Shown here: positions 308-50,428 of the stretch, one piece after another
How the letters are laid out: every line of letters starts with the position of its first letter
Position numbering within the stretch: position 1 is the stretch's first letter
NCBI GenBank assembly: GCA_038323965.1
Contig: JBBQHM010000001.1
Coordinates: 889-64,888 of the forward strand
DNA: 64,000 nucleotides
Direction of reading: 5' to 3'
Source of the DNA: Chthoniobacterales bacterium
GTDB taxonomy: Bacteria > Verrucomicrobiota > Verrucomicrobiia > Chthoniobacterales > UBA10450
Notes under the pieces: generated by a model
What the model was told of the DNA's origin: nothing
Databases searched by the model: none
Seen by the model: only the letters and a program-made list of their open reading frames with translations
Position numbers and translations under genes: made by a program

Positions 308-317
308 CGAGTTGCGG

Positions 318-2423: not shown

Positions 2424-2474
2424 GCCGCGACGTTATGAAAGTGCGTTTCGTTGAGGAAGCGCAAAACCTCTCCG

Positions 2475-2565
2475 GTCATCCCGAGCGAAGCCGAGGGACC
2501 CAGTCGACGCAGAAGCGACGCGGCTGGTTGTTCCACGGGGTTCCTCGGCTTTCGCTCGGGATGAC
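2475..2565. repeat. palindromic intergenic repeat, copy 2
   Basis: GTCATCCCGAGCGAAGCCGAGGGACCC ... GGGGTTCCTCGGCTTTCGCTCGGGATGAC. Confidence 0.9.
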
Positions 2566-2762
2566 CGGGAAACTGACCCAAACATTGGTTGCGCAGGTTG
2601 CGATTTGCCAAACCGCACCTAATCTCCCCACCGGTTCGCAGTTGAACCAAGATCTGCTCACCTGGTCCGCAAGTCGGATCTGATCAGCACGCGAGGTCGC
2701 GCAGATCATATATATAAGAACAGCGCGCTGAATGAGGATCCCGCCCCGGCGGGAATAACAAC

Positions 2763-3158: not shown

Positions 3159-3242
3159 CGTAGTTGTGGGGCAGGCGGTGCGCCCGCCCTACAATCGAGA
3201 AGAGCGTTGAACGTTGCGTGTTCGCCGTTCACGTTAATTCCG

Positions 3243-4259: not shown

Positions 4260-4269
4260 GCAAACAACG

Positions 4270-4350
4270 GTCATCCCGAGCGAAGCCGAGGGACCCCGCG
4301 GCGGTACGATTGCTTTCGCGACGGGGTCCCTCGGCTTCGCTCGGGATAAC
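4270..4350. repeat. palindromic intergenic repeat, copy 3
   Basis: GTCATCCCGAGCGAAGCCGAGGGACCCCGCG ... CGACGGGGTCCCTCGGCTTCGCTCGGGATAAC, lying between pheS and pheT. Confidence 0.9.
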
Positions 4351-4362
4351 GGACTTAGAGTC

Positions 4363-6723: not shown

Positions 6724-7003
6724 TTCTTTGAAATTCGCTGAGAGGCGCCGGTTGAGGGTTGGGATGGAAAGCAGCTTTTTCCGCTCAACTCTCTACCGAC
6801 GACTTTTAGCATTTACGCTGCGATGTACGCGATTACAGGTGTGAATCCCGAACCGATATTTCATTAACAATGGAGGCTTGGTTGTCGGCGACATGACATG
6901 CCTTCATTGGAAGTCAGGAGCGCCGGCGCCGGTCATCCGCCCGTTACCGATAGGGAACGGGAATTCCTCCTAAACGGCACCTGCGGGGTATCTTTTTCCA
7001 AAG

Positions 7004-7042
7004 CGCCCGGATCGAAAAATCGATTCGGGCGTTTTTGCTTTT
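7004..7042 (+). terminator. strong intrinsic terminator with no obvious cognate gene
   Basis: 12-bp stem CGCCCGGATCGA / TCGATTCGGGCG (one G.T pair), AAAA loop, followed by TTTTTGCTTTT. It lies 281 nt downstream of the pheT stop. Confidence 0.7.
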
Positions 7043-7051
7043 CATCTAATC

Positions 7052-7133
7052 GTCATCCCGAGCGAAGCCGAGGGACCCCGTCGCGGTAGCTGTGATTTGC
7101 GTCACGGGGTCCCTCGACTTCGCTCGGGATGAC
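7052..7133. repeat. palindromic intergenic repeat, copy 4
   Basis: GTCATCCCGAGCGAAGCCGAGGGACCCCGTCGC ... CACGGGGTCCCTCGACTTCGCTCGGGATGAC, 60 nt upstream of carA. Confidence 0.9.
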
Positions 7134-7192
7134 AGAAGCGGCGCGGCGCTTCCACGTTGAAATTCCACGCGATGCGCCGAAACTGCCCGCCG

Positions 7193-8329
7193 ATGCGCGC
7201 ACTTCTCGCTCTCGAAGATGGCCGGACATTCGAGGGCGAATCCTTCGGCGCGACGGGCACGAGCGTCGGCGAGATTTGTTTCAATACCTCGATGACCGGT
7301 TACCAGGAAGTGCTAACCGATCCTTCCTACCGCGGCCAGATCGTCGCCATGACTTATCCGCTCATCGGAAATTACGGCACGAACGCGCTCGACCAGGAAA
7401 GCGGCGAGCCGCACGTGCGCGGATTCGTCATCGAAGAATTGAGCGAGATCGCGAGCAACTGGCGTTCAGAAACCTCGCTCAATGATTACCTGAAGCGCTG
7501 GAAAATTCCCGGCATCCAGGGAATCGACACGCGCGCTCTGACGCGACATCTCCGCACGCTCGGCGCCATGAAAGCCTGCCTCACGACCGAGGATATTTCG
7601 CCGGAGCACGCGACCAAACGCGCGCTGGAAGGCGCAGGCGTGATCGGCATGGATTACGTGCGCGAAGTTACCGCGCAGAAATCGTATCGCTGGGATCCGG
7701 ACGATTCGCTCAGTGAGATTTGGTCGATCGCGACGGGCGACGCGCGACCTTTGCTTCCCCCGATTAGATATCGCGTCGTGGCCTACGATTACGGCATTAA
7801 ACAAAACATCCTGCGCCTGCTTCGACAGCACGGATTTGAAGTTACCGTTGTCCCGGCCACCACGAGCGCGGCCGACGCGTTGCAGTTTAATCCCGACGGC
7901 ATCTTTCTCTCGAATGGTCCCGGCGATCCTGCGGCGCTCGACTACGCGCACGAAGCGGTTCGCGGGTTGATGGGCCAGAAACCGATCTTCGGGATTTGTC
8001 TCGGTCACCAGGTGCTGGGTTACGCCTACGGCGGCAAAACCTTCAAGCTTAAGTTCGGACATCGCGGCGGGAATCAGCCGGTGAAGGATCTCCGCACCGG
8101 CAAAGTTGCGATCACGTCACAGAATCACGGCTTCGCGGTCGATCCCGATTCCTTGCCGAAGGAAGTGGAAGTGACGCATGTGAATCTGAATGACGGCACC
8201 GTCGAAGGCATGCGGCATCGCGAACTGCCGGTGTTTAGCGTGCAATATCATCCGGAAGCCGCGCCCGGCCCGCACGATGCCGCATATTTTTTCGAACAAT
8301 TCGCGGAGTTGATCGAAGCAAATCGCTGA
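7193..8329 (+). CDS. carA: carbamoyl-phosphate synthase small (glutaminase) subunit
   Basis: [20 protein letters not shown] start and a GATase triad region ([20 protein letters not shown]). Confidence 0.93.
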
Positions 8330-8364
8330 TCCGACGCTGCCGCTGCGCGAACGGAAAAAGCATC

Positions 8365-9120
8365 CTACCTCGCGGGCCCGAGCGCGGCATCATACTCGCC
8401 GGCTGCTACATGACCGCGCAGCGCGATCACTTCCTTTAACATTCGCAGGGAATCGTGCACAAAATGCACTTTGCTGCCGTCGTGATGGTTCCACCTCACC
8501 GGTAACTCCCGCAGCTTCAGCCCGGCGCGCTGCGCCAATAATAGAAGCTCCACGTCGAAACCGAAGCCATCGATTTTCGCCGCCTCAACCACTGGCCGGC
8601 AAGCGGCCATCCGAAATGCCTTGAAGCCGCATTGCGTGTCCCAGAACGGCAAGCCGGTTGACGTTCGCACCATTAAATTGAAAACGCGCCCAGCCTGTTC
8701 GCGACGCCACGGCTGACGGTTCCCAATCAATTTCCGGTCGAGCGCCCGTGAACCGAATGCGACATCGACGTCGCCTGTTAAAATCGGCGTCACGAGTTTT
8801 GGCATCTCCTCGATCGGAGTTGATAAATCCGCGTCCGAAAAAAGCGCGATCTCCCGCTGCGCCGCCAGCAACCCCTGGCGCACCGCCGCTCCTTTTCCGC
8901 GATTCCGCGCATTCTCCAGCAGGCGCGTCGTGACCGGATGTTGCTCGGCGAAAATATTGCGCGCGACCTCTGCGGTCGTGTCGTTTGAGCCGTCGTCGAC
9001 GACAATCAGTTCGCTCCCGGGCGATTCGCGATCGAGATACGCAATGGTCGCGCGCAACGTTTCACCGAGCCGAACAGCTTCGTCATAAGCTGGAATGATT
9101 ACAGAGATGGCGGGCAGCAT
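8365..9120 (-). CDS. family 2 glycosyltransferase (polyprenyl-phosphate hexosyltransferase-like)
   Basis: VIIPAYDE...VVDDGSNDTT...DADLS is the GT-A DXD architecture. 251 aa. Confidence 0.8.
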   Translation of the reverse strand: MLPAISVIIPAYDEAVRLGETLRATIAYLDRESPGSELIVVDDGSNDTTAEVARNIFAEQHPVTTRLLENARNRGKGAAVRQGLLAAQREIALFSDADLSTPIEEMPKLVTPILTGDVDVAFGSRALDRKLIGNRQPWRREQAGRVFNLMVRTSTGLPFWDTQCGFKAFRMAACRPVVEAAKIDGFGFDVELLLLAQRAGLKLRELPVRWNHHDGSKVHFVHDSLRMLKEVIALRGHVAAGEYDAALGPAR

Positions 9121-9170
9121 GTGGACAGGGAGACGGAGAACCGCCGGGATTCAGCGAAACAAAATCTGCG

Positions 9171-10244
9171 CTACCTGTAAATCTCGACTGCAAACTTACC
9201 GTCGACGCCGACCTGCCCGCGATACATCCCCTGCGTGTTGAACGGGAGCGCCATGTTCCCATCGTGATCCACCGCGATCAGGCCGCCCGTTCCACCCAGG
9301 TCCGCCACATTTTTCAGTGCTGCATCGGCGGCGTCGCGTAACGACATCCCGCGATATTCCATCAACGCTGAGATGGTGTGCGCGACGGCGGTGCGAATGT
9401 AAAACTCACCATCTCCCGTGCAGGAAACTGCGCACGTGGCATTTTTTGCGTAGGTGCCCGCGCCGATGATCGGTGAATCACCCACCCGCCCGGCCCGCTT
9501 GTTCGTGCTTCCACCGGTCGAGGTTGCGGCGGCGAGATTGCCCTGCGCGTCACGTGCGACGGCGCCGACCGTTCCGTAGGGATGAATTTCCGAGAAGACG
9601 AATTTCTTCCCGCCCACGCCACCTGCCTTTTCGCCTTCTTTTACTTTTTGCAGCGCATCCCAGCGCGGCTGCGTGAAAAAATATTTCTCGTCCACCAGTT
9701 CCGCGTTCACTTCTTTGGCGAAGACCTCTGCGCCGGCCCCAACCAGCATGACGTGCTTGGATTTTTCCATGACCGCCCGCGCCAGCGTGATTGGATTTTT
9801 CACGTGGGTGACGTTGGCGACCGCTCCCGCTTTCAACGTCGCGCCATCCATGATGGAAGCGTCGAGCTCGTTCTTCCCTTCCGCGGTGAAGACGGCGCCC
9901 TTCCCGGCATTGAACAACGAATCGTTCTCCAGTGTGCGCACCGCTGTCTCCGTCGCATCCAGCGCGCTGCCGCCGCCTTTTAAAATTTCGTAGCCGGCAG
10001 CGAGCGCGCTTTCGAGCCCGGCCCGGTATTCTTTTTCGTGCTCGGGCGTCATGGTCGCGCGATCGATCGTTCCGGCTCCGCCGTGAATCACGAGTGCAAT
10101 TTTTTGGAGAGACATTGAAGGTGAATCGTGGCCGCGGTTGTCCTCGGCCGGAGCGTTTGCTAATGCTGCGGTTGCGAGCAACGCGCAACTGACAAAGCGC
10201 TTTACGTTTTTCGTCCGCACGTAAGCAAATGTATGCCGTCGCAC
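9171..10244 (-). CDS. isoaspartyl peptidase / L-asparaginase (Ntn hydrolase), secreted
   Basis: Signal peptide, HGGAG motif, autoproteolytic GTVGAVARD threonine site, and GDSPIIGAG. Confidence 0.85.
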   Translation of the reverse strand: MRRHTFAYVRTKNVKRFVSCALLATAALANAPAEDNRGHDSPSMSLQKIALVIHGGAGTIDRATMTPEHEKEYRAGLESALAAGYEILKGGGSALDATETAVRTLENDSLFNAGKGAVFTAEGKNELDASIMDGATLKAGAVANVTHVKNPITLARAVMEKSKHVMLVGAGAEVFAKEVNAELVDEKYFFTQPRWDALQKVKEGEKAGGVGGKKFVFSEIHPYGTVGAVARDAQGNLAAATSTGGSTNKRAGRVGDSPIIGAGTYAKNATCAVSCTGDGEFYIRTAVAHTISALMEYRGMSLRDAADAALKNVADLGGTGGLIAVDHDGNMALPFNTQGMYRGQVGVDGKFAVEIYR

Positions 10245-10258
10245 GCAAACTCAAATAG

Positions 10259-11390
10259 ATGCTGCTGCGACACCTTATACGACGTCATAAATGGCGGCTT
10301 CGCCCGCTTAAGAAAATCGTCCTGCCGTTGCGCAACGCCAGGCGAGCGCTGGTCGCCCTGACGCGTCGCACGCCGCTGATCGTTCGTTCCTGCGCGAACG
10401 CAGTGGAAATTTATCCCGCCGAAAAAGTTCGACCGCACACTGCCAGCTTCGACGTGATTCAGGAGTCAGCCCCGGGAAAGATTTTCCAGTTCCGCGAAAT
10501 CGATTTTTGGAGCCGCTATGGCGGAAGCGTTGTCACGCGCGATCACGAATTGATCGCCGAGTTATCGCCCGATGTCTGGGGCGTCGATAATCATCCGATT
10601 TTTTCGACGCTCCGCCTGCCCCGCCCAGAACGGCTCGACGGCCGAACGGCCATCGCCATTACGCCGGAAGCGCCCGGAAATTATTATCACTGGCTCATCG
10701 ATCTGTTGCCGCGACTTCTGCTCATTCGCGATTTCGCCGGTTCATTTGCCGAATTCGATCGCATTCTCTTGAACGGCTCGCGCACCAACTACGAACGCGA
10801 TTCACTCGCGGCGATCGCCGCGCCGCCATCCAAAATCGTTTACGTCAATCCCAGTGCGCGTTACCAAATCGCGGACGCGACCTTCGCTTCCATGGATCAA
10901 CATTGCGCGGCCACCGCGCCGTGGAAGGTGCGCGCGCTGCGGAGTCTTGCGCCCAAGTCGCGACCGGCGTCCACGCAGCGTCTTTACCTTTCGCGCCGGA
11001 GCGCAGCGGTTCGGCGCGTCGTAAATGAAGAGGCGATTCACGAATTGTTACGCGCGCACGAATTTGAAATTCTAGATCTCGAGAAAATCTCGTGGTGCGA
11101 TCAGGTCGAAAAATTCGCCAGCGCGAATGTGATCGTCGCGCCGCACGGCGCCGCACGGCGCCGCCCTGGCAAACATTGCTTTCTGCCTGCCGGGCACGCG
11201 AGTTTTCGAATTCTGCACCGACGCCGGCTACCGCGACTTCTACCTGCGCCTCGCGGCCGCCGCCGAACTGCCATACGAAGTCATTGCAGCGCAGCCGAGC
11301 ATCAGCGCGGCCACTTCTCATCGCGCAGTCGAGAACGATGACATGATAGTCGACCCGGTGAAGCTTCGAGCTATTCTCGCGTCGCTGTGA
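10259..11390 (+). pseudogene. GT61/DUF563 glycosyltransferase disrupted by a 10-bp tandem duplication
   Basis: Has the EAPGNYYHWLIDLLPRL motif. CCGCACGGCG occurs twice in tandem (11141-11150 and 11151-11160). Removing one copy restores ...APHGAALANIAFCLPGTRVFEF...LRAILASL, with a stop at 11388-11390 that overlaps the next gene's GTG start. Confidence 0.75.
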
Positions 11391-12223
11391 TTCGTCAGCA
11401 TCTGCCAAAGCCAATCCGTCGCATCATAAAATCTGCGGCGGAATTCGCTCTTCCACTACTGGAGGTTGCGCGCGGATTCCGCACCGCGCGCGGTGATTAT
11501 CTGCCAAATCGGTTCCGTATTTTGTTGCGCCGATATGAGGTCGACGAACTAAGGCTGATCGAACCGTTCGTGCGAGACGCGAAGGTGATTTTCGATGTCG
11601 GCGCGAATGTCGGCTACGTCAGTCGCTTCTTCGCCGAGACGAAAACTGCGGGCGCTCGCCTCTACTCTTTTGAGCCCAATCCCATCATTTTCCCCATCCT
11701 CAAGCGCAACGTCGCGCGCCTGCCCGGCGTCCGCGTCTTTAACTTCGGTCTTTCGAACGCCGACTCGGAAATGCCGCTTTTTCTTGCCGGAAACAACCAT
11801 TCCGTCGGTTCGTTTTCCACCGCGTATCCGGCAACGCATGCTGTCCATCAGGAATCGAAAGACGTGCATTCCGTCTCCGCAAAACTCGCACATGGCGACT
11901 CCCTCGCGGCCCACGAAGGGATCTCGCAAATCGATGCCCTGAAGATCGATGTCGAAGGTTGGGAGCTCAACGTGCTGGCCGGCCTTGAGCAGACTATCGG
12001 GCGCTCACCGCACCTTGCGATTTTTTGCGAATACAATGCCGCCGCGCAGCAGTGTGCCGGTCGCGCAGCCGAAGAACTCCCGGCCTGGTTTCTCGAGCGC
12101 GGTTTCACACTCTCCGTGGCAGAAGGCGGCGCGCTCCGGCGCTTGCCCCGCGCTGCGATGGCGGTCGTTGCTGCGCTTCCGCCCGGGGCCGCCTACCCGA
12201 CCCTGTTCGCGACGCGTGAATAG
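11387..12223 (+). CDS. FkbM-family SAM-dependent methyltransferase
   Basis: FDVGANVGYVSRFF glycine-rich SAM motif and LKIDVEGWELNVL motif. 278 aa. Confidence 0.8.
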   Translation: MIRQHLPKPIRRIIKSAAEFALPLLEVARGFRTARGDYLPNRFRILLRRYEVDELRLIEPFVRDAKVIFDVGANVGYVSRFFAETKTAGARLYSFEPNPIIFPILKRNVARLPGVRVFNFGLSNADSEMPLFLAGNNHSVGSFSTAYPATHAVHQESKDVHSVSAKLAHGDSLAAHEGISQIDALKIDVEGWELNVLAGLEQTIGRSPHLAIFCEYNAAAQQCAGRAAEELPAWFLERGFTLSVAEGGALRRLPRAAMAVVAALPPGAAYPTLFATRE

Positions 12224-12277
12224 CCGCGCCATTTTCCGCTTTCCCGTTCCCGTAACCCAGAGGACGTTCCCGGCGTC

Positions 12278-13135
12278 ATGAGCCAGAACCCGGGCGAAAG
12301 CGAGACATCGAGTGCATCTATTCAGGTGCAGCCGGTGGCTGTGCTGCAGAGCCTCGGCGCGGCCGGCCGCGGCTTTTTCTTCGAGATCGGCGCGCTCTTC
12401 TGGTTCATCATCAACGTTTTCGCTGAAACACTCGACCGCATGCGCAGCGGACGCGCGCCGTTTCGCGCCACCAGCTTCTTTCGACATACCCAGCGCGCTG
12501 GCGTCGCATCCGTTCCGCTCGTCGGTCTCGTCTCATTTTTCCTTGGGCTCACCATGGCCCTCCTCACCGGTTACCAATTGCAACGCTTTGGGACGGAACG
12601 CCTCGTGCCGGGCCTTGTCGCCATCTCGTTTACCCGTGAACTCGGGCCGCTGCTGACCGGCATCATGCTCGCGGCCCGGATCGGCGCTGCTTTCACCGCC
12701 GAACTTGGCACCATGAAAGTCTCGGAAGAAGTCGAGGCGATCGAAGCGATGGGCATCGGACCACTGCGTTTCCTTGTCGCTCCTCGCCTCCTCGCCTTGT
12801 TCGCGCTCATGCCCTGCCTCTCCACTGTCTCCAGCATCGCTGCGGTTGCGGCCACTAGTCTTATCAGCAAGGCTTATTTCAGCATCGCCTTCCCTTATTT
12901 TCTCGAGCTCGTCGTCGACTCACTTCTTATTCGCGACATCATCACGGGCGTCATTAAGAGTCTGCTCTTCGGCACGCTCATCGGCGGCATCGCCTGCTAC
13001 CGCGGACTCAACGTTACCGGCGGCGCGGCCGGCGTCGGCACCTCCACCACCTCCAGCGTCGTCACTGCCATTACCGCGGTGATCGGTTTCGATACCGTCT
13101 TCAACGTCGTTTACACCGTTTTCTTCCCGACATGA
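12278..13135 (+). CDS. mlaE: MlaE-family ABC transporter permease
   Basis: FTRELGPLLTGIMLAARIGAAFTAELGTMKVSEEVEAIEAMG is the conserved MlaE/Ttg2B core. Confidence 0.88.
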   Translation: MSQNPGESETSSASIQVQPVAVLQSLGAAGRGFFFEIGALFWFIINVFAETLDRMRSGRAPFRATSFFRHTQRAGVASVPLVGLVSFFLGLTMALLTGYQLQRFGTERLVPGLVAISFTRELGPLLTGIMLAARIGAAFTAELGTMKVSEEVEAIEAMGIGPLRFLVAPRLLALFALMPCLSTVSSIAAVAATSLISKAYFSIAFPYFLELVVDSLLIRDIITGVIKSLLFGTLIGGIACYRGLNVTGGAAGVGTSTTSSVVTAITAVIGFDTVFNVVYTVFFPT

Positions 13136-13923
13136 GCGAAGCGCCAGATCCAGCATTAGTTGAGCTGCGCGATGTCCACCTGCAGTTCGACGAGAAGGAA
13201 ATCCTGAAAGGCGTTTCGCTTGAGGCCAATCACCTCGACCGGCTTGTCATCATGGGACAGAGCGGTAGCGGAAAAAGCACCATTTTGCGCCTTATCCTCG
13301 GCATCCTCCAGCCCGATGCCGGCGAAGTTTACTTCAAGCATTTCGATATGACCCGCCTGAAGCGCCGCAAGATCCAACAGATTCGCCGGAATATCGGGAT
13401 GGTGTATCAATACTCGGCGTTGCTCAGCTCCCGGAACGTGCGCGATAATATCGCCCTGCCGCTCGAGGAGCTGACCGATAAAAAGCGTGACGAGATCGAC
13501 CACATCGTGGACGAAAAACTCACCCTCGTCGGCATGGAAAACGTGCGCGACCAGATGCCATCCGAGCTCAGCGGCGGTATGCGCAAACGCGTCAGCCTCG
13601 CCCGCGCCCTCGTCATGGAGCCCGAGCTTATCCTATTCGATGAGCCCAGCGCCGGCCTCGACCCCGTCATCAGCTCCGTCATCGACGAGCTCATCATCAG
13701 CTTGAGCGAAAAACAGAAGGTCACCTCCGTCATCGTCACCCACGAAATGGACAGCGCCTTTCGCATCGGCACACGAATGGCTATGTTATACCAAGGAAAG
13801 ATCATCGAGCAGGGCACGCCCGAGGAATTTAAGGCGTCAACCAATCCCGTTGTCGCCCAATTCTTGAGCGGCAGCACGGAAGGTCCCATTCTCGAAGGAA
13901 CACAGGATGCAATTACGGCGTAA
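13132..13923 (+). CDS. mlaF: MlaF-family ABC transporter ATP-binding protein
   Basis: Walker A GQSGSGKST, signature LSGGMRKRVSLARAL, Walker B LILFDEP. 4-nt overlap with mlaE. Confidence 0.9.
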   Translation: MSEAPDPALVELRDVHLQFDEKEILKGVSLEANHLDRLVIMGQSGSGKSTILRLILGILQPDAGEVYFKHFDMTRLKRRKIQQIRRNIGMVYQYSALLSSRNVRDNIALPLEELTDKKRDEIDHIVDEKLTLVGMENVRDQMPSELSGGMRKRVSLARALVMEPELILFDEPSAGLDPVISSVIDELIISLSEKQKVTSVIVTHEMDSAFRIGTRMAMLYQGKIIEQGTPEEFKASTNPVVAQFLSGSTEGPILEGTQDAITA

Positions 13924-14959
13924 CGAAATAATGACCGGCCTTCTCGTCATGGGGACGATAGGCGTACTCGTCTTTGTCCTGATCCTGCTCGGCGCGCCCG
14001 GACTTTTCCGGCCGCTCATCACCTATCATATCTACATTGATAACGCCTCCGCCATCAAGCTCGGCGCACCCGTCATGCTCGCGGGACGCAAGATCGGCCA
14101 GGTCGAGAAACTCTTCTCGCCCATGACCAAGGATGAATCGAAGCGTGCCGAAGAGGTAGATGCCGCCATCCATCCGCCCGAACCCGGCGCTTCGCCCACC
14201 CCTTCCGCCTCACCTAATCGTATCAAATACGAAGCCCGCATCGACGTTCAGGTCGAGAAAACAGCCATGGTCTACCGCGACGCCCGTGCTCGCCTCATGA
14301 GCCTTGGCATACTCGGCGAATACGCCATCGATTTCACTCAAGGCAACGATGCTTCCGGCCGCGCTAAGGACGGCGAAATCTTCGCCGGCGAACGCTCGCC
14401 TGAGTTCGGCGAGATCGCCTCCAAGATGGTCGATATCCTTCAGCCCGTCGCCAAGGAAGCGACCAATGCCTTGAAGGAACTGCAGAACACCACCCAGAAC
14501 CTGGGCAGGATTACCGACGACGATTCCCAGCTTAACATGGCCATTGGGCAGTTCCGCACCTTCGCCGAGAACATCACCAGCCTTACCGCGCGCAATAGTT
14601 CACTCAATCAATCGCTCGATAACATCAAGGATATCAGTTCACAGATTTCCGAGAACGATAACCTCAAGGTCACCCTGCAGAACTTTCGCGACTCCTCCGA
14701 TCGGTTGAAGTCCACCTTAAACTCACTTTCGCCTGACCTGAAAGCAGCTGGCGCGAACGTTGCCCAACTGACCGACACCGTGAAGACCGAGCCATGGCGC
14801 CTGCTCTGGCCGAGTAAAAAGAAATACCCCGAAGGCAACCAGCCCGCTGCTGCTGCGCGCACCAAGGACGGGGACACCATCACCGTCCGTAAAAGTACCA
14901 GGGCGAGCGGCTCCCCATCGCCAACGCCCGCAAAGCGTCGCGCCGTCATCGTCCCGTGA
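13907..14959 (+). CDS. mlaD: MlaD/MCE-domain protein
   Basis: N-terminal TM segment, MCE domain (YHIYIDNASAIKLGAPVMLAGRKIGQV), long helical C-terminal region. ATG 13931 is an alternative start. Confidence 0.8.
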   Translation: MQLRRNEIMTGLLVMGTIGVLVFVLILLGAPGLFRPLITYHIYIDNASAIKLGAPVMLAGRKIGQVEKLFSPMTKDESKRAEEVDAAIHPPEPGASPTPSASPNRIKYEARIDVQVEKTAMVYRDARARLMSLGILGEYAIDFTQGNDASGRAKDGEIFAGERSPEFGEIASKMVDILQPVAKEATNALKELQNTTQNLGRITDDDSQLNMAIGQFRTFAENITSLTARNSSLNQSLDNIKDISSQISENDNLKVTLQNFRDSSDRLKSTLNSLSPDLKAAGANVAQLTDTVKTEPWRLLWPSKKKYPEGNQPAAAARTKDGDTITVRKSTRASGSPSPTPAKRRAVIVP

Positions 14960-15132
14960 AAACGGCCCACCGCGGTCGACCCAATCTGATTCTATCAGCT
15001 GACCCTTCAGCTACTTGATCCTCAGACGTCAACTCAATGATCCACCTTCTGAAAGCAGATCACCTCTTTCGTTATCTGTAGCCGGGAATCCAGAAATAGA
15101 TTGCACTTTGCAGCCGAATACTTGTTAGATCT

Positions 15133-15738
15133 ATGAGACTGGCTTGCGCGGTTATCTTACTCACCGCTGGCGTATCATCGGCGGCCACCAACGACCATTT
15201 GGTTCCGCGATCGAAGTCTTTCACCGAATATCGTCAGTTCGTTCGAAGCCGTTTAGAAATTACGCCATTCGATTGCGGAAGAATCGTTCTCATACCCGAC
15301 TTGAGCCCGGAAGCGGCGGTTTCGGTATACACTTCGGGTAATCATTTTTACGTCACCGAAACGGTGGCGAGTGGGCATGGATTTTGGCAAGCAAGAGAGT
15401 CGCATGAGCGTGTTAAGATCCAGAGGTCGGACCACGAGATAAGAAGCGACATCGCCTTAGCGGTCCGGCGCGGGATCACGGCGCTGCTCCGCGATGTTCG
15501 TTCCGATTCCACGTCGCGAACTGTAGGCGGGGATATTCACCTGTTTGAAGTTTCGCTTCACGCGCCGCAAGGCATCTTACGCGGCGATAGCCCGAGAGAA
15601 GCACCGGGCCCGCGCACGAAAGGACTTGAGGAGTTGTGCCAGGCGTTGATTGATTATTGTGAAGCGCCGGCACATAAGCGGCAACCTATCGAAGCACGGA
15701 TCGGGAAATGTGTTACTTCCCTTTTGCGAAAGACCTAA
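15133..15738 (+). CDS. cassette 1: secreted hypothetical protein
   Basis: 201 aa with signal peptide MRLACAVILLTAGVSSA. I recognise no family motif. The TAA stop lies inside the attC1 R'' box. Confidence 0.6.
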   Translation: MRLACAVILLTAGVSSAATNDHLVPRSKSFTEYRQFVRSRLEITPFDCGRIVLIPDLSPEAAVSVYTSGNHFYVTETVASGHGFWQARESHERVKIQRSDHEIRSDIALAVRRGITALLRDVRSDSTSRTVGGDIHLFEVSLHAPQGILRGDSPREAPGPRTKGLEELCQALIDYCEAPAHKRQPIEARIGKCVTSLLRKT

Positions 15739-15856
15739 CCAAGCGATGCAGCGAACCGCGCCCCGCTTTGCGTTTACCTTTTGTCATGACTCGTTCCTTT
15801 CTTGTGTTTGCGACGCGCGCTCCCCGGCGCGGTCGCTGATCTTGTTCTCGTTAGAC
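15733..15856 (+). repeat. attC site 1 (124 bp)
   Basis: ACCTAAC...GTTAGAC. The CAAGCGATGCAGCGAACCGCG arm faces CGCGGTCGCTGATCTTG. Confidence 0.85.
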
Positions 15857-15858
15857 GT

Positions 15859-16221
15859 ATGTTGCGACTTCTTGTCCTCAGCCTTCTGTTGGCGAGCTTA
15901 ACTCGATTGGCTGCCGCGCCATCTTCTGATGCGCCGCGTCACTACACTGGCGAACAGTGGCAGGCGATCAAAGCGCGATTTATCGACACGCCTCGCCCTG
16001 ATTACTACGAGAGCCTACGTCGTCGTCACATCACCGGCAGCGGAGCTTTCCGGCTATACATCGATGCGCAAGGGAGAGTTACACAGGTGAAGATTCTACA
16101 GAGCACCGGCCATCGCGAGCTCGATGCCACAGCTACGGCAGCTTTTCGCAATTGGCGCGCCAAGCCGGGGCCCGCATGGGATCTGGATGTGCCGGCAACG
16201 TTTGCAATGACGCAGCGCTGA
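15859..16221 (+). CDS. cassette 2: secreted TonB C-terminal-domain protein
   Basis: ATG lies 3 nt after attC1. Signal peptide MLRLLVLSLLLASLTRLAAA, and a TonB_C-like GAFRLYIDAQGRVTQVKILQSTGHRELDATATAAF. Confidence 0.65.
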   Translation: MLRLLVLSLLLASLTRLAAAPSSDAPRHYTGEQWQAIKARFIDTPRPDYYESLRRRHITGSGAFRLYIDAQGRVTQVKILQSTGHRELDATATAAFRNWRAKPGPAWDLDVPATFAMTQR

Positions 16222-16240
16222 TGCTTTGGCCACGCGATAC

Positions 16241-16347
16241 GTCTAACCAAGCGATTCAGCCAACCGCGACCGTCCCTATGCCCGGATGTCGGCCTTCATG
16301 AATACCACTCGTAAATCGCGCGGTGGCCGATCTTGGTCGCGTTAGAC
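16241..16347 (+). repeat. attC site 2 (107 bp)
   Basis: GTCTAAC...GTTAGAC. The 5' arm is nearly identical to that of attC3. Confidence 0.85.
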
Positions 16348-16689
16348 CTATTGAGATCGCTCACCTTCCTTCTTGCCTTTGCCTGTTTCAGTTGCGCCAT
16401 CACAAAGCAGCAGGCCATTGACATCGCTGCGCATGAGATTGCTGCGCGCCATCTTCCACTTCCAGCGGATACACAGGTCGAAGTTGCACAGGATCGCATC
16501 CTCGTATTCGATGAGGCTGTTGGCGTAGGCGAAGAGTATCCGCGTTACATTGTGGCATATCGTTTTCGTGGTAAGCTTCTTTATGCTGTCTGCATCCGCT
16601 CATACACTCCACACATGCGGGAGTTTAAAGATTTGAGGCAGCACCCGGACGCTAGTCCTGCTGACGTCTTTGGCTGGAAGGAACGTTAA
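16333..16689 (+). CDS. cassette 3: hypothetical protein with lipoprotein-like N-terminus
   Basis: The only candidate starts are TTG 16333 (inside attC2) and TTG 16351. LLAFACFSC is lipobox-like. I recognise no family. Confidence 0.5.
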   Translation: MVALDLLRSLTFLLAFACFSCAITKQQAIDIAAHEIAARHLPLPADTQVEVAQDRILVFDEAVGVGEEYPRYIVAYRFRGKLLYAVCIRSYTPHMREFKDLRQHPDASPADVFGWKER

Positions 16690-16692
16690 TGG

Positions 16693-16800
16693 GTCTAACC
16701 AAGCGATGCAGCCAACCGCGACCGTCCCTATGTCCGGCTCTCAGACCTTCTGAACGCCACTTGGAAATCGCGCGGTGGCTGATCTTGTGTCTCGTTAAGC
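16693..16800 (+). repeat. attC site 3 (108 bp)
   Basis: GTCTAAC...GTTAAGC. GATGCAGCCAACCGCG faces CGCGGTGGCTGATC, leaving unpaired G and A. Confidence 0.85.
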
Positions 16801-16851
16801 GTTCTTTCTCCAGGCACCGACACACTCACACCTAGACGAAATGAGAAAAGC

Positions 16852-17541
16852 ATGAACAGAATCCTTATCGTACTCACATCGCACAACCAGCTTGGGAACA
16901 CGGGCCGCACCACGGGGTTCTGGCTGGAAGAGCTTGCTGCTCCCTACTACGTGTTCAAAGACGCAGGAGCAGAGCTCACCTTGGCTTCCCCAAAGGGCGG
17001 GCAGCCGCCGCTCGACCCCAAGAGTGACGACCCCGACGCTCAAACCGAGGCGACTCGTCGGTTCAAGGCTGACAGTGCCGCGAATGTCGCACTGGCCGCT
17101 ACCGCCAGGCTGGACTCGCTTTCGGCCCAGGACTTTGACGCGGTCTTCTACCCCGGAGGGCACGGCCCGCTCTGGGATCTTGTCGACAACGAAGTGTCCA
17201 TTCGGCTGATCGAAGACTTCTGGGCAGGCAACAAGCCCGTATCCGCCGTGTGCCATGCTCCGATTGCTCTCGTCAATGCCAAGGACGAAAACGGTGAGCA
17301 CATTGTGAAAGGGCGAGAAGTGGCGGGCTTCACGAACTCTGAGGAGGAAGCTGTCGGCCTCACCAAGGTTGTTCCTCTCCTCGTAGAGGACACGATGATT
17401 GCTCGTGGCGCCAAGTACTCAAAAGCCGACAACTGGCAGTCCTACACGCGCCAGGACGGCAATCTCATCACCGGTCAAAACCCGGGATCATCAGAGGCAG
17501 TGGCAAAGCTCCTTCTCGCAGCGCTTGAAAAGCGACGCTGA
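16852..17541 (+). CDS. cassette 4: DJ-1/PfpI (type 1 glutamine amidotransferase-like) protein
   Basis: ILIVLTSH..., PGGHGPLWDL and nucleophile elbow SAVCHAP. 229 aa. Confidence 0.8.
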   Translation: MNRILIVLTSHNQLGNTGRTTGFWLEELAAPYYVFKDAGAELTLASPKGGQPPLDPKSDDPDAQTEATRRFKADSAANVALAATARLDSLSAQDFDAVFYPGGHGPLWDLVDNEVSIRLIEDFWAGNKPVSAVCHAPIALVNAKDENGEHIVKGREVAGFTNSEEEAVGLTKVVPLLVEDTMIARGAKYSKADNWQSYTRQDGNLITGQNPGSSEAVAKLLLAALEKRR

Positions 17542-17672
17542 GGAGGGATCGAGGTGTCTCAGCTTTCTGCGCTTTTTTCGGTACGATATGAACACCTCAG
17601 CAACACCTGGATGGGACCGGGCTGTGAGTGTGAGTAGCGTTTGGGCTGGTCCTACTAACGTTGCCTATGGCC

Positions 17673-17819
17673 GCCTAACCAGGGCGCTCCAGCGAACCGC
17701 CGCTATCGCTCTCCGCTCGGAGTGGGTTTTGGAGTTCGGGCGCGCGCCATGACTAAACCATTCCACCTCCGATCAACGCTCGCTCTCGGTAGGCGTCGCT
17801 AATCTTGTTCTCGTTAGGC
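17673..17819 (+). repeat. attC site 4 (147 bp)
   Basis: GCCTAAC...GTTAGGC. The central CATGACTAAAC...CACGCTCGCT module is shared with attC6 and attC7. Confidence 0.8.
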
Positions 17820-17830
17820 GACTTGTCACC

Positions 17831-18238
17831 ATGACCGTATCGCAAGACAATCTCATCGTGTTCGACGGCGTCTGTAATTTTTGCACTTCGTCAGTTCAGT
17901 TCATACTTCGGCATGATAGAGGAGCGGTGTTTCGATTCGTTTCCATTCAATCGGAACTCGGCAGAGAGATTTGCCGCACGGCCGGACTCGACCCTGACGA
18001 CATGCAGACATTTCTAGTTTTCACGAATGGTCGCATCCATCTTAGGAGCGATGCGGCCCTTGAAGTCGCAAAGCAGTTCGGCGGCTTGTGGCGCCTGTTG
18101 GTTTTATTCAAAGTGGTGCCGAGACGATTGCGCGATTCGGTGTATTCCTTTGTCGCAAGACACAGATATCGTTGGTTTGGCCGGCGTGATTCTTGTATGA
18201 TTCCCTCGGAAAAAGTCAGACAGAGATTTCTAGCATGA
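17831..18238 (+). CDS. cassette 5: DCC-family thiol-disulfide oxidoreductase (DUF393)
   Basis: FDGVCNFC active-site motif and C-terminal RDSVYSFVARHRYRWFG. Confidence 0.8.
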   Translation: MTVSQDNLIVFDGVCNFCTSSVQFILRHDRGAVFRFVSIQSELGREICRTAGLDPDDMQTFLVFTNGRIHLRSDAALEVAKQFGGLWRLLVLFKVVPRRLRDSVYSFVARHRYRWFGRRDSCMIPSEKVRQRFLA

Positions 18239-18242
18239 TGCC

Positions 18243-18335
18243 GCCTAACCATGCGCTGCAGCGCACGGTAACATCGCATCACTGTTGCAATCGGCGCGCC
18301 TCGTGGCCGCCGTCGCTGAGCTTGGGTCGTTAGGC
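18243..18335 (+). repeat. attC site 5 (93 bp)
   Basis: GCCTAAC...GTTAGGC, starting 4 nt after the cassette 5 stop. Confidence 0.8.
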
Positions 18336-18376
18336 ATTTCTCTTCGCGCAGACATTATTACACCAATGAAATATCA

Positions 18377-18763
18377 ATGAATACACGCTCCCGTTTGTTT
18401 GCCGTTTCGAGCGCGCTTATGATCGTCGCTACAGCTTTTACGTCCACTTACGGACAAGATCCTAACTGGAAGCGACCTGGCTCTGAAGAAACCGCTGCGG
18501 TTGACCGCGCTAATGCCGAAATCGATAGAGTTTATGAGGAGCTCATAAGTAAACTCGACACTGCACAACAAAAGAGTCTGAAAGAGGCCCAACGTGCTTG
18601 GATCAAGTGGCGGGACGCTGAAGCAGATCTCGTGGCACGTTTGGGCGGCGCCGTTGGTGGTAGCGCTTTCCGTGTTGGTTACTCGACTGCGCAGGCCAAG
18701 CTGATTCAGCAACGGAAAGAGTTACTGAGAGGATATCTCAAGGATGCCGGGAGTAATCGATGA
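18377..18763 (+). CDS. cassette 6: secreted DUF1311 / LprI-like (lysozyme-inhibitor family) protein
   Basis: Signal peptide and the DUF1311 pattern ...EIDRVYEELISKL...QKSLKEAQRAWIKWRDAEADL. Confidence 0.7.
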   Translation: MNTRSRLFAVSSALMIVATAFTSTYGQDPNWKRPGSEETAAVDRANAEIDRVYEELISKLDTAQQKSLKEAQRAWIKWRDAEADLVARLGGAVGGSAFRVGYSTAQAKLIQQRKELLRGYLKDAGSNR

Positions 18764-18779
18764 TAGCATTAAAACCCCT

Positions 18780-18899
18780 ATCCAACCGATGCAGCGAACG
18801 TCTACCCGCTGCTCGCGCCACATTTTCCATGACTAAACCTATTCCTGCACGAGCCACGCTCGCTGCCGATAGGCATCCCTGATCTTATGCTCGTTAAGT
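18780..18899 (+). repeat. attC site 6 (120 bp)
   Basis: ATCCAAC...GTTAAGT. This is the most divergent R boxes in the array, but they still fit RYYYAAC/GTTRRRY. Confidence 0.7.
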
Positions 18900-18939
18900 G
18901 GTACAATTAACTATCAAATGAGCACAGGGGAGATAAGTC

Positions 18940-19572
18940 ATGCAGATTGATACAATTGATCCGCAGAAGACCGCGATGATCGTGGTCGATATGCAGAACG
19001 ACTTCGTGGCGGCGGGCGCTGCGATGGAAACGCCTGCGGCACGTGCCGTGGTGCCCAAGCTTGCCGAGGCGCTGAAAGTCTGCCGCGATGCCAAAATCAA
19101 AGTCATCTATACGGCTCATGTGCATCGCCGTGACGGATGCGATATGGGACTCTTCAATATGCATCCGCCAATCGCCAATCGTGCTGCGTTAGTCGATGGC
19201 ACGCCAGGGGTAGACATTTACCCTGAGCTCGCGCCGGCACCGGGTGAGCATGTCATCAAGAAGCATCGCTACAGCGGTTTTTTTGGCACGGACATGGACA
19301 TTATCCTGCGCGAGTGGGGTGTCGATACCGTCATCATTTCGGGGACGACTACCGAGAATTGCTGCCACGCAACGGCAAGGGACGCGATGTTTCGTAATTA
19401 CCGGGTCGTCTTTCTGTCGGACGCCACCGCAACCTATGACTACCCGGACCGCGGATTTGGCGCGATGCCAAACGCCCAGGTGCACCACGCCACACTCGTG
19501 ATCCTCGCGGCATCAACGGCCCACGTCATGTCGGTCAATGATATGCAGACGCGCATATCGCGACGCGAATGA
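18940..19572 (+). CDS. cassette 7: isochorismatase-family cysteine hydrolase
   Basis: TAMIVVDMQNDFV, and ISGTTTENCCHATARDA with the catalytic Cys. GGGGAG Shine-Dalgarno sequence upstream. Confidence 0.85.
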   Translation: MQIDTIDPQKTAMIVVDMQNDFVAAGAAMETPAARAVVPKLAEALKVCRDAKIKVIYTAHVHRRDGCDMGLFNMHPPIANRAALVDGTPGVDIYPELAPAPGEHVIKKHRYSGFFGTDMDIILREWGVDTVIISGTTTENCCHATARDAMFRNYRVVFLSDATATYDYPDRGFGAMPNAQVHHATLVILAASTAHVMSVNDMQTRISRRE

Positions 19573-19594
19573 CGACTGTGCTGTCCACGCTAAC

Positions 19595-19717
19595 ACCTAA
19601 CCAGGCGATGCAGCCAACCGCTGGCCGTTCGGAAGCCGCGTCTCAGTTTATGAAAACACCTCCATTACAAGCCACGCTCGCTCTCGCCAGCGGTGGCTGA
19701 TCTTGGTCTCGTTAGGT
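19595..19717 (+). repeat. attC site 7 (123 bp)
   Basis: ACCTAAC...GTTAGGT. GATGCAGCCAACCGCTGGC faces GCCAGCGGTGGCTGATC, leaving two extrahelical bases. Confidence 0.85.
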
Positions 19718-19873
19718 GAATGGAGAAGTAAGCGCGCGGGGAAAACGGATAGCGATTGAGATGTTCCCTGATCTGCGATCAACGTCTGGAAGCGGAGTCT
19801 TAGTTTATCAAATCGGAGCCTTCGTAATTCGTGCTCGCTACCGGTGACCGGAGCTGATGTACTGACGTTGGCG

Positions 19874-21007
19874 ATGGAACAGCACTTGGAACAGACGAAA
19901 CCGCGCCGCCGCGGTAAACTCAGGCGCGTCTTCTATACCCTGCTTCTGCTGCTCTTAATTTTTGCGGTGTATCTCTGGGCCACGGGCGCGCGGCAGGACC
20001 CGATTGAAACAGGCGAGCCGTCGATGAAGGCGGTGATTTACACTGATTACGGGTCGCCGGAAGTTCTCCAGCTCAGGGAGATTACGAAGCCGGTCCCTAA
20101 CGACGATCAGATTTTGATCAAGGTCCGGGCCGCTTCGCTCAATCCACTCGACTGGCATTTCATGGAAGGCACTCCCTACCTCATGCGCGCGCTCGGAGTA
20201 GGCCTGCGCAAACCAAAGGTCCCGCGCCTTGGGGTGGATCTGGCGGGCGTGGTCGAGGCGGTCGGTAAAAACGTGACTCAGTTCAAGATGGGCGACGAGG
20301 TGTTCGGCGGCAAGACGGGGGCGCTGGCAGAGTATGTCTGCGCGCGCGCGGATCAAAGCATCACGCTCAAGCCGGCCAACGTGACGTTCGAACAGGCTGC
20401 GGCAGCTCCAATCGCCGGGCTGACCGCGCTGCAGGGTCTGCGCGACAAGGGGCACGTCCAACCGGGGCAGAAGGTGCTAATCAACGGAGCGTCGGGAGGG
20501 GTCGGCACTTTTGCGGTCCAAATCGCAAAGTCCTACGGCGCGGAAGTGACTGGTGTCTGCAGCACGCGGAACCTGGAGCTGGTGCGTTCGCTCGGCGCGG
20601 ACCGCGTGATCGATTATACGAAGGAAGATTTCACGCAGGGACAGGAACGTTACGATGTGATTCTCGATAATGTCGGCAATCAGCCCTTAGCGGGATTCCG
20701 GCGCGTCCTGCAGACGAAAGGAATCTGCGTCATGATCGGCGGCGGCGGACCGAATGACGGCGGATTGATCGGCCCAATGGGTCGCCCGCTGCAGGCGCTC
20801 ATCATGTCGCCGTTCGTGAGCCAGAAGATGGGGATGTTCATGGCGGACATAACAAAAAGCGATTTGGCGATTCTGGGCGATATGATGCAGACCGGAAAGG
20901 TGAAGGCGGTGATCGACCGCACCTATCCGCTGAGTCAGATCGCCGAGGCGATGCGCTACCTCGAAGCGGGCCACGCCCGCGGGAAGGTAGTTATCGAGGT
21001 CCAGTAA
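19874..21007 (+). CDS. cassette 8: zinc-type MDR NAD(P)-dependent dehydrogenase / quinone oxidoreductase with an in-frame N-terminal TM extension
   Basis: The canonical core begins MKAVIYTDYGSPEVL at ATG 20024, with GASGGVGTFAVQIAK as the NAD(P) motif. ATG 19874 adds a basic-plus-hydrophobic segment, RRVFYTLLLLLLIFAVYLWA. Confidence 0.8.
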   Translation: MEQHLEQTKPRRRGKLRRVFYTLLLLLLIFAVYLWATGARQDPIETGEPSMKAVIYTDYGSPEVLQLREITKPVPNDDQILIKVRAASLNPLDWHFMEGTPYLMRALGVGLRKPKVPRLGVDLAGVVEAVGKNVTQFKMGDEVFGGKTGALAEYVCARADQSITLKPANVTFEQAAAAPIAGLTALQGLRDKGHVQPGQKVLINGASGGVGTFAVQIAKSYGAEVTGVCSTRNLELVRSLGADRVIDYTKEDFTQGQERYDVILDNVGNQPLAGFRRVLQTKGICVMIGGGGPNDGGLIGPMGRPLQALIMSPFVSQKMGMFMADITKSDLAILGDMMQTGKVKAVIDRTYPLSQIAEAMRYLEAGHARGKVVIEVQ

Positions 21008-21017
21008 AGCGTTGCAC

Positions 21018-21542
21018 CTAACTCCCGTTAGGCGCGGGCACGATCTGAACGCTCTCGATGTTCACGCGCTGGTGCGGACGGTCGGATGAATTGGTCGCGG
21101 TGGTCCCGATTTTATCGAGGACCTCTTCGCCTTTAATCAGCTGGCCGAAGGCGGTGTACTGGCGATCGAGAAATTTGGCCGGGCCGTGGCAGATGAAAAA
21201 CTGGCTGCCGGCCGAATCAGGATCCTGCGAACGCGCCATCGAGAGAACGCCGCGGTCGTGCGATTTCGCATTAAACTCCGCCTTGATCTTGTAACCCGGG
21301 TCGCCGGTGCCCCAACGATTTTGCTGTGCTTCATCCTTGGTCAGCGGATCGCCGCCTTGAATCATAAATCCCTTGATTACGCGATGAAACGCGGTGCCGT
21401 CGTAAAAGCCTTCGCGCGCGAGCTTCTTGAAATTCTCGACCGTCTTCGGCGCCACATCCGGCCAGAACTCCAGCACCATTTCGCCTTCGCTGGTTTTAAT
21501 GACTGCGACTTCATCGGGAGTGGAATTGGATACGGAATTCAT
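21018..21542 (-). CDS. ppiB: cyclophilin-type peptidyl-prolyl cis-trans isomerase
   Basis: FHRVIKGFMIQGGDP and SAGSQFFI motifs. Start placed at ATG 21542 (MNSVSNS...); the upstream part of the 271-aa ORF is Arg/Ser-rich and looks non-coding. Confidence 0.88.
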   Translation of the reverse strand: MNSVSNSTPDEVAVIKTSEGEMVLEFWPDVAPKTVENFKKLAREGFYDGTAFHRVIKGFMIQGGDPLTKDEAQQNRWGTGDPGYKIKAEFNAKSHDRGVLSMARSQDPDSAGSQFFICHGPAKFLDRQYTAFGQLIKGEEVLDKIGTTATNSSDRPHQRVNIESVQIVPAPNGS

Positions 21543-21654
21543 GAGGGCAATATCCTCGCGGCGCTCGCCGGCAGAGGCAACCGGCGTTCGCGTGAAGGAA
21601 CGATACCAGCAAGATGGCAAGCGGTGCGCTTGCCCTGCCATTCGCGCCGGCGGA

Positions 21655-48630: not shown

Positions 48631-48644
48631 CGTTAGTTGCGGGC

Positions 48645-50423: not shown

Positions 50424-50428
50424 GGCGA

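Follow-up and report, generated by a model that had tools for sequence, protein, structure and literature searches.

Groups of clustered attC sites that lack an integron-integrase (CALIN) were defined with IntegronFinder by Cury et al. (2016) as at least two attC sites in the same orientation, spaced by less than 4 kb, with no intI gene nearby; the definition neither requires nor usually assesses an attI site, which is unknown for most integrons (Cury et al. 2016). Their cassettes are mostly of unknown or non-resistance function, and they contain about five attC sites on average. We analyzed a locus of this kind in a stretch of DNA from a Chthoniobacterales bacterium of the Verrucomicrobiota (hereafter the window), which takes up 64.0 kb of a 66.6-kb NCBI contig, JBBQHM010000001.1. 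Positions 15092-19717 of the window, possibly extending to 21033, very probably represent a Chthoniobacterales-type chromosomal integron cassette array minus its integrase gene. The array is like CALIN in the clustering and shared orientation of its attC sites, in the functions of its cassettes, and in its typical size, with seven sites, and is unlike them in keeping a recognizable attI-like head.

Sedentary chromosomal integrons, typified by the Vibrio cholerae superintegron with its V. cholerae repeats (VCR), offer a second comparison. As in those integrons, the attC sites described here belong to a homogeneous, lineage-specific family of fixed length, arrays in related genomes are long, with 14 or more cassettes per 8 kb, and each cassette carries one small open reading frame (ORF), many of which encode secreted or unknown proteins. 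Unlike those integrons, the window locus has no integrase and only seven sites, its host belongs to Verrucomicrobiota rather than Gammaproteobacteria, C replaces G as the first extrahelical base, and the second lies at position 22 rather than 23/24. The within-taxon conservation of the sites, and the ability of a covariance model to identify their source lineage, match the taxon-specific attC families of Ghaly et al. (2021, Commun Biol); the eleven models published there are for six orders of Gammaproteobacteria together with Acidobacteria, Cyanobacteria, Deltaproteobacteria, Planctomycetes, and Spirochaetes, and none represents Verrucomicrobia. Lastly, single attC sites lacking integron-integrases (SALIN) and small CALIN formed at genomic attG sites (Loot et al.) likewise place cassettes away from the integrase, possibly under a neighboring host promoter, but the head of the window array is homologous to an attI region rather than to an arbitrary GWT site.

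Integrons in Verrucomicrobia have been noted before (Cury et al.), and we found no description of a Chthoniobacterales or Udaeobacter attC family, or of its attI, in the literature searched. The element type is thus well known and the lineage little described; the finding is well supported but will not surprise a specialist, and it leaves the understanding of how integrons work unchanged. Its value lies elsewhere. Chthoniobacterales, which are among the most abundant soil bacteria, carry large integrons with a very uniform attC family of their own, and integrase-less arrays derived from these integrons appear to be scattered in their chromosomes. The attC family lets cassettes from soil metagenomes be assigned to a host lineage, the array head is a concrete attI candidate for a non-proteobacterial integron, and the C found in place of G as first extrahelical base is a natural variant usable in recombination assays.

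Eight plus-strand ORFs and seven repeats fill the region that runs from the mlaD stop codon (14959) to the point where a convergent, minus-strand cyclophilin gene ends (stop codon at 21018-21020), with exactly one plus-strand ORF in each inter-repeat interval. The seven repeats were recovered by a repeat search and MAFFT alignment, and their start-to-start spacing is 452-1102 nt. In the feature list that follows, bit scores refer to R1, a covariance model built from 66 complete, non-redundant (<85% identity) elements of the same family, none of them from the window. Names beginning with L denote related stretches from other genomes or metagenomes that were used for comparison.

15092 to 15130, plus strand: attI-like leader, CAGAAATAGATTGCACTTTGCAGCCGAATACTT-GTTAGAT, 95% identical to the attI region of L106.
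15733 to 15856, plus strand: attC1, with R'' ACCTAAC and R' GTTAGAC; 104.9 bits, E 4e-25.
16241 to 16347, plus strand: attC2, of a short 107-nt subtype and 85% identical to attC3; 66 bits.
16693 to 16800, plus strand: attC3, with R' GTTAAGC; 77.3 bits.
17673 to 17819, plus strand: attC4, the longest (147 nt) and most divergent; 37 bits, E 1e-7.
18243 to 18335, plus strand: attC5, the shortest (93 nt); 50 bits.
18776 to 18899, plus strand: attC6, with degenerate R'' CCCTATC, several L-box mismatches, and six non-standard pairs; 50.7 bits.
19595 to 19717, plus strand: attC7, the best preserved and the last complete attC; 109.4 bits.

A sequence-only reading of the window had proposed seven co-oriented repeats of 93-147 nt and anticipated that an attC covariance model would return at least seven co-oriented sites. 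Model R1, run over the 64 kb with filters off, finds exactly seven significant matches, all on the plus strand and scoring 37-109 bits; the next-best match, the reverse strand of attC7, scores 21 bits. All proposed coordinates are confirmed except the start of attC6. That site is real, but its homologous R'' is CCCTATC at 18776 rather than ATCCAAC at 18780, a shift of 4 nt. On the top strand, the repeats share a layout of R'' (xxCTAAC), a 5-nt spacer, an arm GAT-G-CAGCS-A-ACCGC..., a variable center, a 3' arm, a spacer of 8-9 nt, and R' (GTTARRY). The 3' arm, ...GCGGTSGCTGATC, complements the 5' arm without the two extra bases; the pairing proposed for attC7, in which the 5' arm has a single additional G and a single additional A, is as had been claimed. 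So are the core motifs, GTTRRRY fitting R' in all seven sites and RYYYAAC fitting R'' in six, with attC6 as the exception.

In the window sites, what is conserved is the structure of an imperfect hairpin rather than its sequence. Across the seven sites, 89.4% of stem cells are paired, versus 20-38% when the partner column is slid, and 9 of 24 pairs show compensatory changes in which both sides are altered. Within attC5 alone, L-box changes of this kind convert GAT/ATC to GCT/AGC and CCG/CGG to CGG/CCG. The centers cannot be aligned with each other, and a variable terminal structure is present. When bottom strands are folded as DNA, the canonical hairpin is the minimum-energy structure for attC3 and attC7. 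The degenerate R'' of attC6, together with its six non-standard pairs, suggests that this site may be in some decay.

To place the repeats in a broader setting, we searched one genome for each prokaryotic species with a 22-nt pattern taken from their 5' half (TAACCANGCGATNCAGCSAACC). At least 119 stretches matched, where about one chance match is expected. Among the matches listed, nearly all come from metagenome-assembled genomes (MAGs) labelled Chthoniobacterales, Verrucomicrobiae, Udaeobacter, or 'Spartobacteria'. In the loci fetched for comparison, nhmmer finds 500 copies of the family, in arrays with up to 14 or more sites per 8 kb. Length classes of about 109, 123-124, and 129 nt are seen in the family. 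Of 401 sites kept because they have TAAC and GTTA ends, 384 have the core end RYCTAAC and 385 have GTTAGRY.

A few exact matches to the pattern come from MAGs binned under phyla other than Verrucomicrobiota: Acidobacteria or Terriglobales bins (L022, L046, L047, L070, and L099), Nitrospira (L074), Nostoc (L103), Methylomirabilota (L104), Limnocylindria (L037), and Alphaproteobacteria (L087). Matches in MAGs of other phyla could be binning contamination or could reflect cross-phylum transfer of cassettes.

In the R1 alignment, the pairing of R and L boxes was written down and the pairs were counted. Among the 66 elements, 91.8% of stem cells are paired; a shift of the partner by 1-3 columns lowers this to 14-43%. 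Compensatory changes are seen at 8 of the 24 pairs. Covariation extends to columns not fixed by the fishing pattern, such as pair 21/110 (GC in 46, CG in 14) and pair 31/103 (GC in 26, UA in 23, CG in 3). The R''-side arm of 429 unique family sites has two single-base bulges at fixed positions, 16 and 22; read on the bottom strand, the first is C in 405 sites (94%) and the second is T in 401 (93%). In attC sites, the R''/L'' arm is reported to have two or three extrahelical bases, at position 16 (usually G when read on the bottom strand) and at 23/24 (T) (Nivina et al., PMC5027507), and the bulges therefore match published values in position and in the arm that bears them, while the identity of the first base differs. 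Among non-Watson-Crick stem cells, 166 fit a bottom-strand G.T pair versus 87 that fit a top-strand G.T pair, a bias that fits predicted folding of the bottom strand in this family.

The register of the R'' and R' boxes reaches from structure to recombination. If units move by crossover between the G and the TT of R', TTRRRY is carried along with the downstream cassette, to whose own attC it was formerly joined, and the outer bases of the R'' of one site are predicted to pair with the R' of the preceding site rather than with the R' of the same site. At 199 internal sites in related arrays, Watson-Crick pairing of the two outer R'' bases is possible with the R' one site before in 177 and 176 cases (89%), versus 111 and 119 (56-60%) for the R' of the same site and 103 and 105 for the next R'. 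In the window, the outer R'' bases pair with the preceding R' at seven of seven scorable cassettes. We regard this register as direct evidence, at the level of sequence, that members of the family have been recombined as integron cassettes.

Sixteen of the fetched loci that carry the family also encode an IntI homolog, in many cases beside an array. Four of these proteins were scored against TIGR02249, 'integron integrase', and all fall between 451 and 493 bits (cut-off 265). The intI gene is divergent from the cassettes in seven loci (L012, L016, L057, L059, L073, L105, and L106) and co-directional with them, the 'inverted integrase' arrangement, in seven others (L014, L030, L050, L078, L107, L108, and L109). 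Both orientations are known integron types. The same attC family serves both, all in Chthoniobacterales MAGs, and the junction is similar in each: ...CGTCTAATTCTC|GTTAGAT.

Two of the co-directional integrase genes appear to be damaged. In L107, at about 4300-4600 on the minus strand, the intI frame is broken between ...VQELLGH and KDVSTTMIYTHV, just before the catalytic tyrosine, by an insertion of about 290 nt that codes for a GIY-YIG-like ORF (YVGLTRDL...) with an internal stop. In L108, which is positions 48001-56000 of a complete-chromosome MAG (OY970345.1), intI is apparently frameshifted, the IntI-specific patch and box II being in different frames, yet the array has at least 14 cassettes; further attC loci occur on that chromosome at 392-400 kb and 1200-1208 kb.

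The left end of the window array resembles the region that lies beside intI in these relatives. Window positions 15092-15130, CAGAAATAGATTGCACTTTGCAGCCGAATACTTGTTAGAT (39 nt), align at 95% identity with L106 5140-5178 (E 3e-11). In L106, 37 nt separate this segment from the start codon of a divergent intI, and the first cassette comes immediately after it. The putative crossover core, GTTAGAT, occupies 15124-15130, 2 nt ahead of the ATG of ORF1. Leaders of the same type head arrays in L013, L016, L038, L039, L080, L085, L100, and L105. The leader is an imperfect inverted repeat that starts with GAAATAG and ends with ...AAT(T/A/C)CT(C/T)-GTTAGRY, with an ATG 2-4 nt later. A junction of the ...AATTCTC|GTTAGRY type stands beside intI in all 14 integrons examined, seven divergent and seven co-directional.

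Two inner variants of the leader are seen in the window and the nine loci taken together, ATTGCA..TGCA and GGCGAAAC..GTTTCG, and the palindromic arrangement, which may reflect either an operator for a protein or a structure of the DNA, is kept in both.

No IntI similarity was found in the 64 kb by tblastn with 14 IntI sequences or fragments from related loci (best E 0.08), and no IntI-like sequence lies between mlaD and the leader at 15092. The proposed absence of any tyrosine recombinase thus holds at the sensitivity of that search. Seven plus-strand attC sites are clustered less than 4 kb apart with no intI gene or pseudogene within 4-10 kb, so the locus is a CALIN by IntegronFinder's definition. 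A complete integron has intI adjoining attI and the array; here, the gene upstream of the attI-like site is an intact mlaD, whose end lies 132 nt away. The description of the locus as an integrase-less integron cassette array is borne out by attC covariation, by the linkage of the family to IntI, by the G|TT register, and by the lack of intI in the window. Because the leader is homologous to an intI-proximal attI region, it points to an integron that lost intI rather than to a secondary site that received cassettes. The simplest reading would be deletion of intI from an integron, or its separation by a rearrangement. Other leaders also stand apart from an integrase: L085 1904-1941 (minus strand), L100 2489-2528 (plus strand), and L039 7429-7468 (minus strand) have no IntI similarity in the 0.5-6 kb of upstream sequence available. 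Integrase-less arrays with a putative attI thus appear to recur in Chthoniobacterales, in the window, L085, L100, and perhaps L039.

The array consists of the attI-like site at 15092-15130 followed by seven promoterless cassettes, each with one short ORF and one attC. The bottom strand of each attC would fold into an imperfect hairpin made up of an R box, a spacer that stays unpaired, and an L box from which two extrahelical bases protrude. Given an integron integrase in trans, cleavage between the G and the TT of GTTRRRY could release a cassette as a circle, and this could be re-inserted at an attI, possibly the retained attI-like site. With no intI in the 64 kb, the array would be a passive cassette store, and only an IntI from another part of the genome or from outside could mobilize it. 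Read-through from the same-strand mlaEFD operon would be the most likely source of transcription for the cassettes. It is plausible because the operon and the array share a strand, no terminator is predicted between them, and the ORFs lack predicted promoters; scans for sigma-70 promoters and intrinsic terminators found none between mlaD and ORF1, and overall fewer sites than in shuffled controls. We infer activity, mobilization in trans, expression, and the deletion that removed intI from established integron biology.

Several observations weigh against reading the locus as an integron array that lost its integrase. Minimum-energy folds of single sites are canonical for only two of the seven window sites; fold z-scores are between -0.8 and -1.6 for five of the seven and +0.14 for attC4, against -3.2 for attC7, and attC6 looks degenerate. 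On the bottom strand, C occupies the first extrahelical position, whereas G is usual in canonical sites. The training set of R1 was fished with a pattern from attC1, attC2, attC3, and attC7 of the window, and conservation at positions 4-26 is partly by construction; the 3' halves, the covarying columns, and the R1 matches to attC4, attC5, and attC6, none of which matches the pattern, are evidence independent of it. The attI assignment rests on homology and position, with intI adjacent to only 3 of 10 leaders in the available sequence, and the term integrase-less applies to 64 kb.

These points leave room for other accounts of the locus. One would make the repeats a lineage-specific family of intergenic palindromes, of the repetitive extragenic palindrome, miniature inverted-repeat transposable element, or terminator kind, that has nothing to do with integron recombination. 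They are indeed unusually uniform for attC sites, mostly 123-124 nt, and very abundant in one clade, but uniformity of attC is the norm in sedentary chromosomal integrons (PMC5027507). Moreover, the repeats form strictly co-oriented arrays headed by integron integrases, their R''/R' register shows G|TT exchange between neighboring units, and their bulges lie where attC sites have extrahelical bases; we give this account almost no credence. It is also improbable that the array was built in place, with an integrase encoded elsewhere inserting cassettes at a non-classical genomic GWT site (attC x attG), so that no intI ever stood at its head. Experiments with class 1-3 integrases have demonstrated that SALIN and CALIN can arise in this way (bioRxiv 10.1101/2022.09.11.507474), and the locus has features that agree: at the left junction GTTAGAT stands bare, without an attC upstream of it, and attC7, the last complete attC, is followed by sequence of host-like GC. 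A random GWT site, however, would not end a 39-nt segment that is 95% identical to the intI-proximal attI region of L106, nor would it share a leader architecture common to nine other array heads.

Slighter still are the chances that the integron is complete after all, either with intI beyond the window or with the array misjoined to the mla operon in assembly. The window comes from a MAG contig of 66.6 kb, assemblies classically break at attC repeats, and rearrangements are known to split integrons into CALIN and In0 (Cury et al.). Yet intI lies within about 40-500 nt of the attI junction in 14 of 14 related integrons, and here that space is bounded by mlaD 132 nt upstream; the point where mlaD meets the leader falls outside any repeat, neither the 15 kb upstream nor the 43 kb downstream shows IntI similarity, and L085 and L100 independently show the leader without intI. 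Loss or separation of intI from a Chthoniobacterales integron remains the account we favor. A variant of it, in which attI-headed arrays without intI are not decaying remnants but satellite integration platforms served in trans by a single integrase elsewhere, seems unlikely to us. Were it true, Chthoniobacterales genomes would run several cassette insertion points, the one described here lying behind mlaEFD, which would supply transcription.

The genes of the array and its borders are as follows.

13907 to 14959, plus strand: mlaD (Pfam MlaD), the left flank and last gene of an mlaE-mlaF-mlaD operon, intact and co-directional with the array.
15133 to 15738, plus strand: cassette 1 ORF, 201 aa, with a signal-peptide-like N-terminus and no family; its TAA stop is within the R'' of attC1.
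15859 to 16221, plus strand: cassette 2 ORF, a signal peptide plus TonB_C (Pfam PF03544, E 1e-13).
16351 to 16689, plus strand: cassette 3 ORF, about 112 aa, with a probable TTG start, a hydrophobic, lipoprotein-like N-terminus, and no family.
16852 to 17541, plus strand: cassette 4 ORF, DJ-1/PfpI family (Pfam PF01965).
17831 to 18238, plus strand: cassette 5 ORF, DCC1-like thiol-disulfide oxidoreductase (Pfam PF04134, E 7e-31).
18377 to 18763, plus strand: cassette 6 ORF, a signal peptide plus LprI, formerly DUF1311 (Pfam PF07007).
18940 to 19572, plus strand: cassette 7 ORF, isochorismatase/cysteine hydrolase family (Pfam PF00857, E 7e-45).
19844 to 21007, plus strand: ORF8, a zinc-type dehydrogenase of the medium-chain dehydrogenase/reductase (MDR) superfamily (Pfam ADH_N and ADH_zinc_N) with an N-terminal hydrophobic segment.
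21016 to 21033, plus strand: mini-palindrome ACCTAAC-TCCC-GTTAGGC; R1 10 bits, E about 0.8.
21018 to 21551, minus strand: cyclophilin-type peptidyl-prolyl isomerase gene (Pfam PF00160, E 3e-53), the right flank, convergent with the array.

Pfam searches support the families that had been read from the translations alone (TonB_C, DJ-1/PfpI, DCC, DUF1311, isochorismatase, MDR dehydrogenase, and two ORFs without family). The functions are unrelated to each other, and four of the eight ORFs have secretion signals. ORFs 1-7 are compactly placed, with start codons 2-52 nt past the R' that precedes them. The DJ-1 gene of cassette 4 has a counterpart with 89% nucleotide and 92% amino acid identity in an unrelated metagenome array, L001, where it is preceded by an attC of a different sequence type and where the array lies downstream of another prolyl isomerase gene. 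Homologs of the TonB_C ORF of cassette 2 are present as cassettes in seven related arrays. The shared DJ-1 gene and the TonB_C cassettes of other arrays count as sequence-level evidence for cassette exchange. The cassette 3 ORF has a homolog with 37% identity in the array locus L083, and the cassette 7 protein belongs to a cluster at 90% or greater identity with 82 members from soil metagenomes.

The right end of the array is less clear than the left. Eight ORFs had been assigned to the array; seven have an attC, while ORF8 is followed by no full attC. Its start is uncertain (19844, 19874, or 20021) and its GC fraction of 0.61 is host-like. More than 100 homologs at 79-85% identity are found in Chthoniobacterales data. 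The two examined, in L130 and L131, lie in different surroundings, have no attC of this family beside them, and are homologous within the ORF only. ORF8 may be a backbone gene rather than a cassette, because it lacks a full attC and is widespread in Chthoniobacterales in attC-free contexts. The mini-palindrome that follows it is possibly a collapsed attC, in which R'' is fused to the end of the 3' spacer and to R'. Its outer R'' bases match the TTAGGT at the start of the putative cassette 8, and a comparable collapsed site lies inside an array at L046 2926-2948. It can only be called suggestive, because remnants made of R'', a short spacer, and R' are not enriched overall: 4 sites were found in 1 Mb, no more than expected by chance. 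The mini-palindrome overlaps with the 3' end of the cyclophilin gene, namely its final four codons and its stop. Homologous cyclophilins end in ...IVPA(D/S/G)SV(K/A/G) or ...IVPAADAV, versus IVPAPNG(S/N), encoded by the mini-palindrome, in the window and in L135. The latter, a contig only 1 kb long, is the closest relative found (cyclophilin 93% identical) and shows the same convergent junction of ORF8 and ppiB, with the palindrome in the degenerate form GTCTAAT-TTCC-GTTAGGC.

Apparent collapsed attC remnants were seen in or near arrays at L046 2926-2948, L022 6629-6661, and L062 1273-1305. One has R'' fused directly to the 3' spacer and R', while the others are fused after the first 7 nt of L''; their form suggests that they arose by deletion of the hairpin body.

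Gene calls and Pfam matches agree with the flanks as first described, mlaE, mlaF, and mlaD to the left and a cyclophilin gene to the right. The region had been called visibly AT-rich, and a drop in GC does exist, but it is modest (0.51-0.58 over 15-19 kb versus about 0.58-0.62 in the flanks). Upstream gene order (window positions of about 300-14959) is kept in five long metagenome contigs whose MlaD is 55-58% identical (L122-L125 and L129). MlaD aligns with its relatives over residues 1-345, and synteny that is kept upstream of mlaD stops downstream at its stop codon. Nine metagenome relatives with MlaD 51-64% identical retain the order of genes upstream, and in none of them is an attC, a cyclophilin, or any window gene found downstream of mlaD. 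From the other side, two loci with a cyclophilin 88% identical (L132 and L133) keep rsmI, a 102-aa ORF, and ppiB, followed by a PEP-CTERM gene, and their cyclophilin has a different four-residue tail. No empty site was found from either the mlaD or the cyclophilin side among the relatives examined, which are too distant. Of the proposal that the array was inserted between mlaD and cyclophilin, then, the end of synteny at the mlaD stop codon agrees, while with no empty site among relatives insertion is not demonstrated.

In a related MAG whose MlaD is 61% identical (L110 1-6444), an array of the same attC family lies by the 3' end of mlaD in the opposite orientation, split from mlaD by three attC-less ORFs that encode a cupin, a SnoaL-like protein, and an M19 dipeptidase.

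At gathering thresholds, Rfam, which contains no attC family, gives no match inside the array region; the sole matches in the window are a class A bacterial RNase P RNA (203 bits) and three tRNAs, all on the minus strand, at 39332-39728, 42739-42810, 52966-53038, and 56549-56620. Further upstream in the window, a segment of about 2 kb at 10250-12224 with an FkbM-family methyltransferase ORF (11387-12223) is a second lineage-specific insertion, since the genes that border it adjoin each other in all syntenic relatives (L122-L125 and L129).

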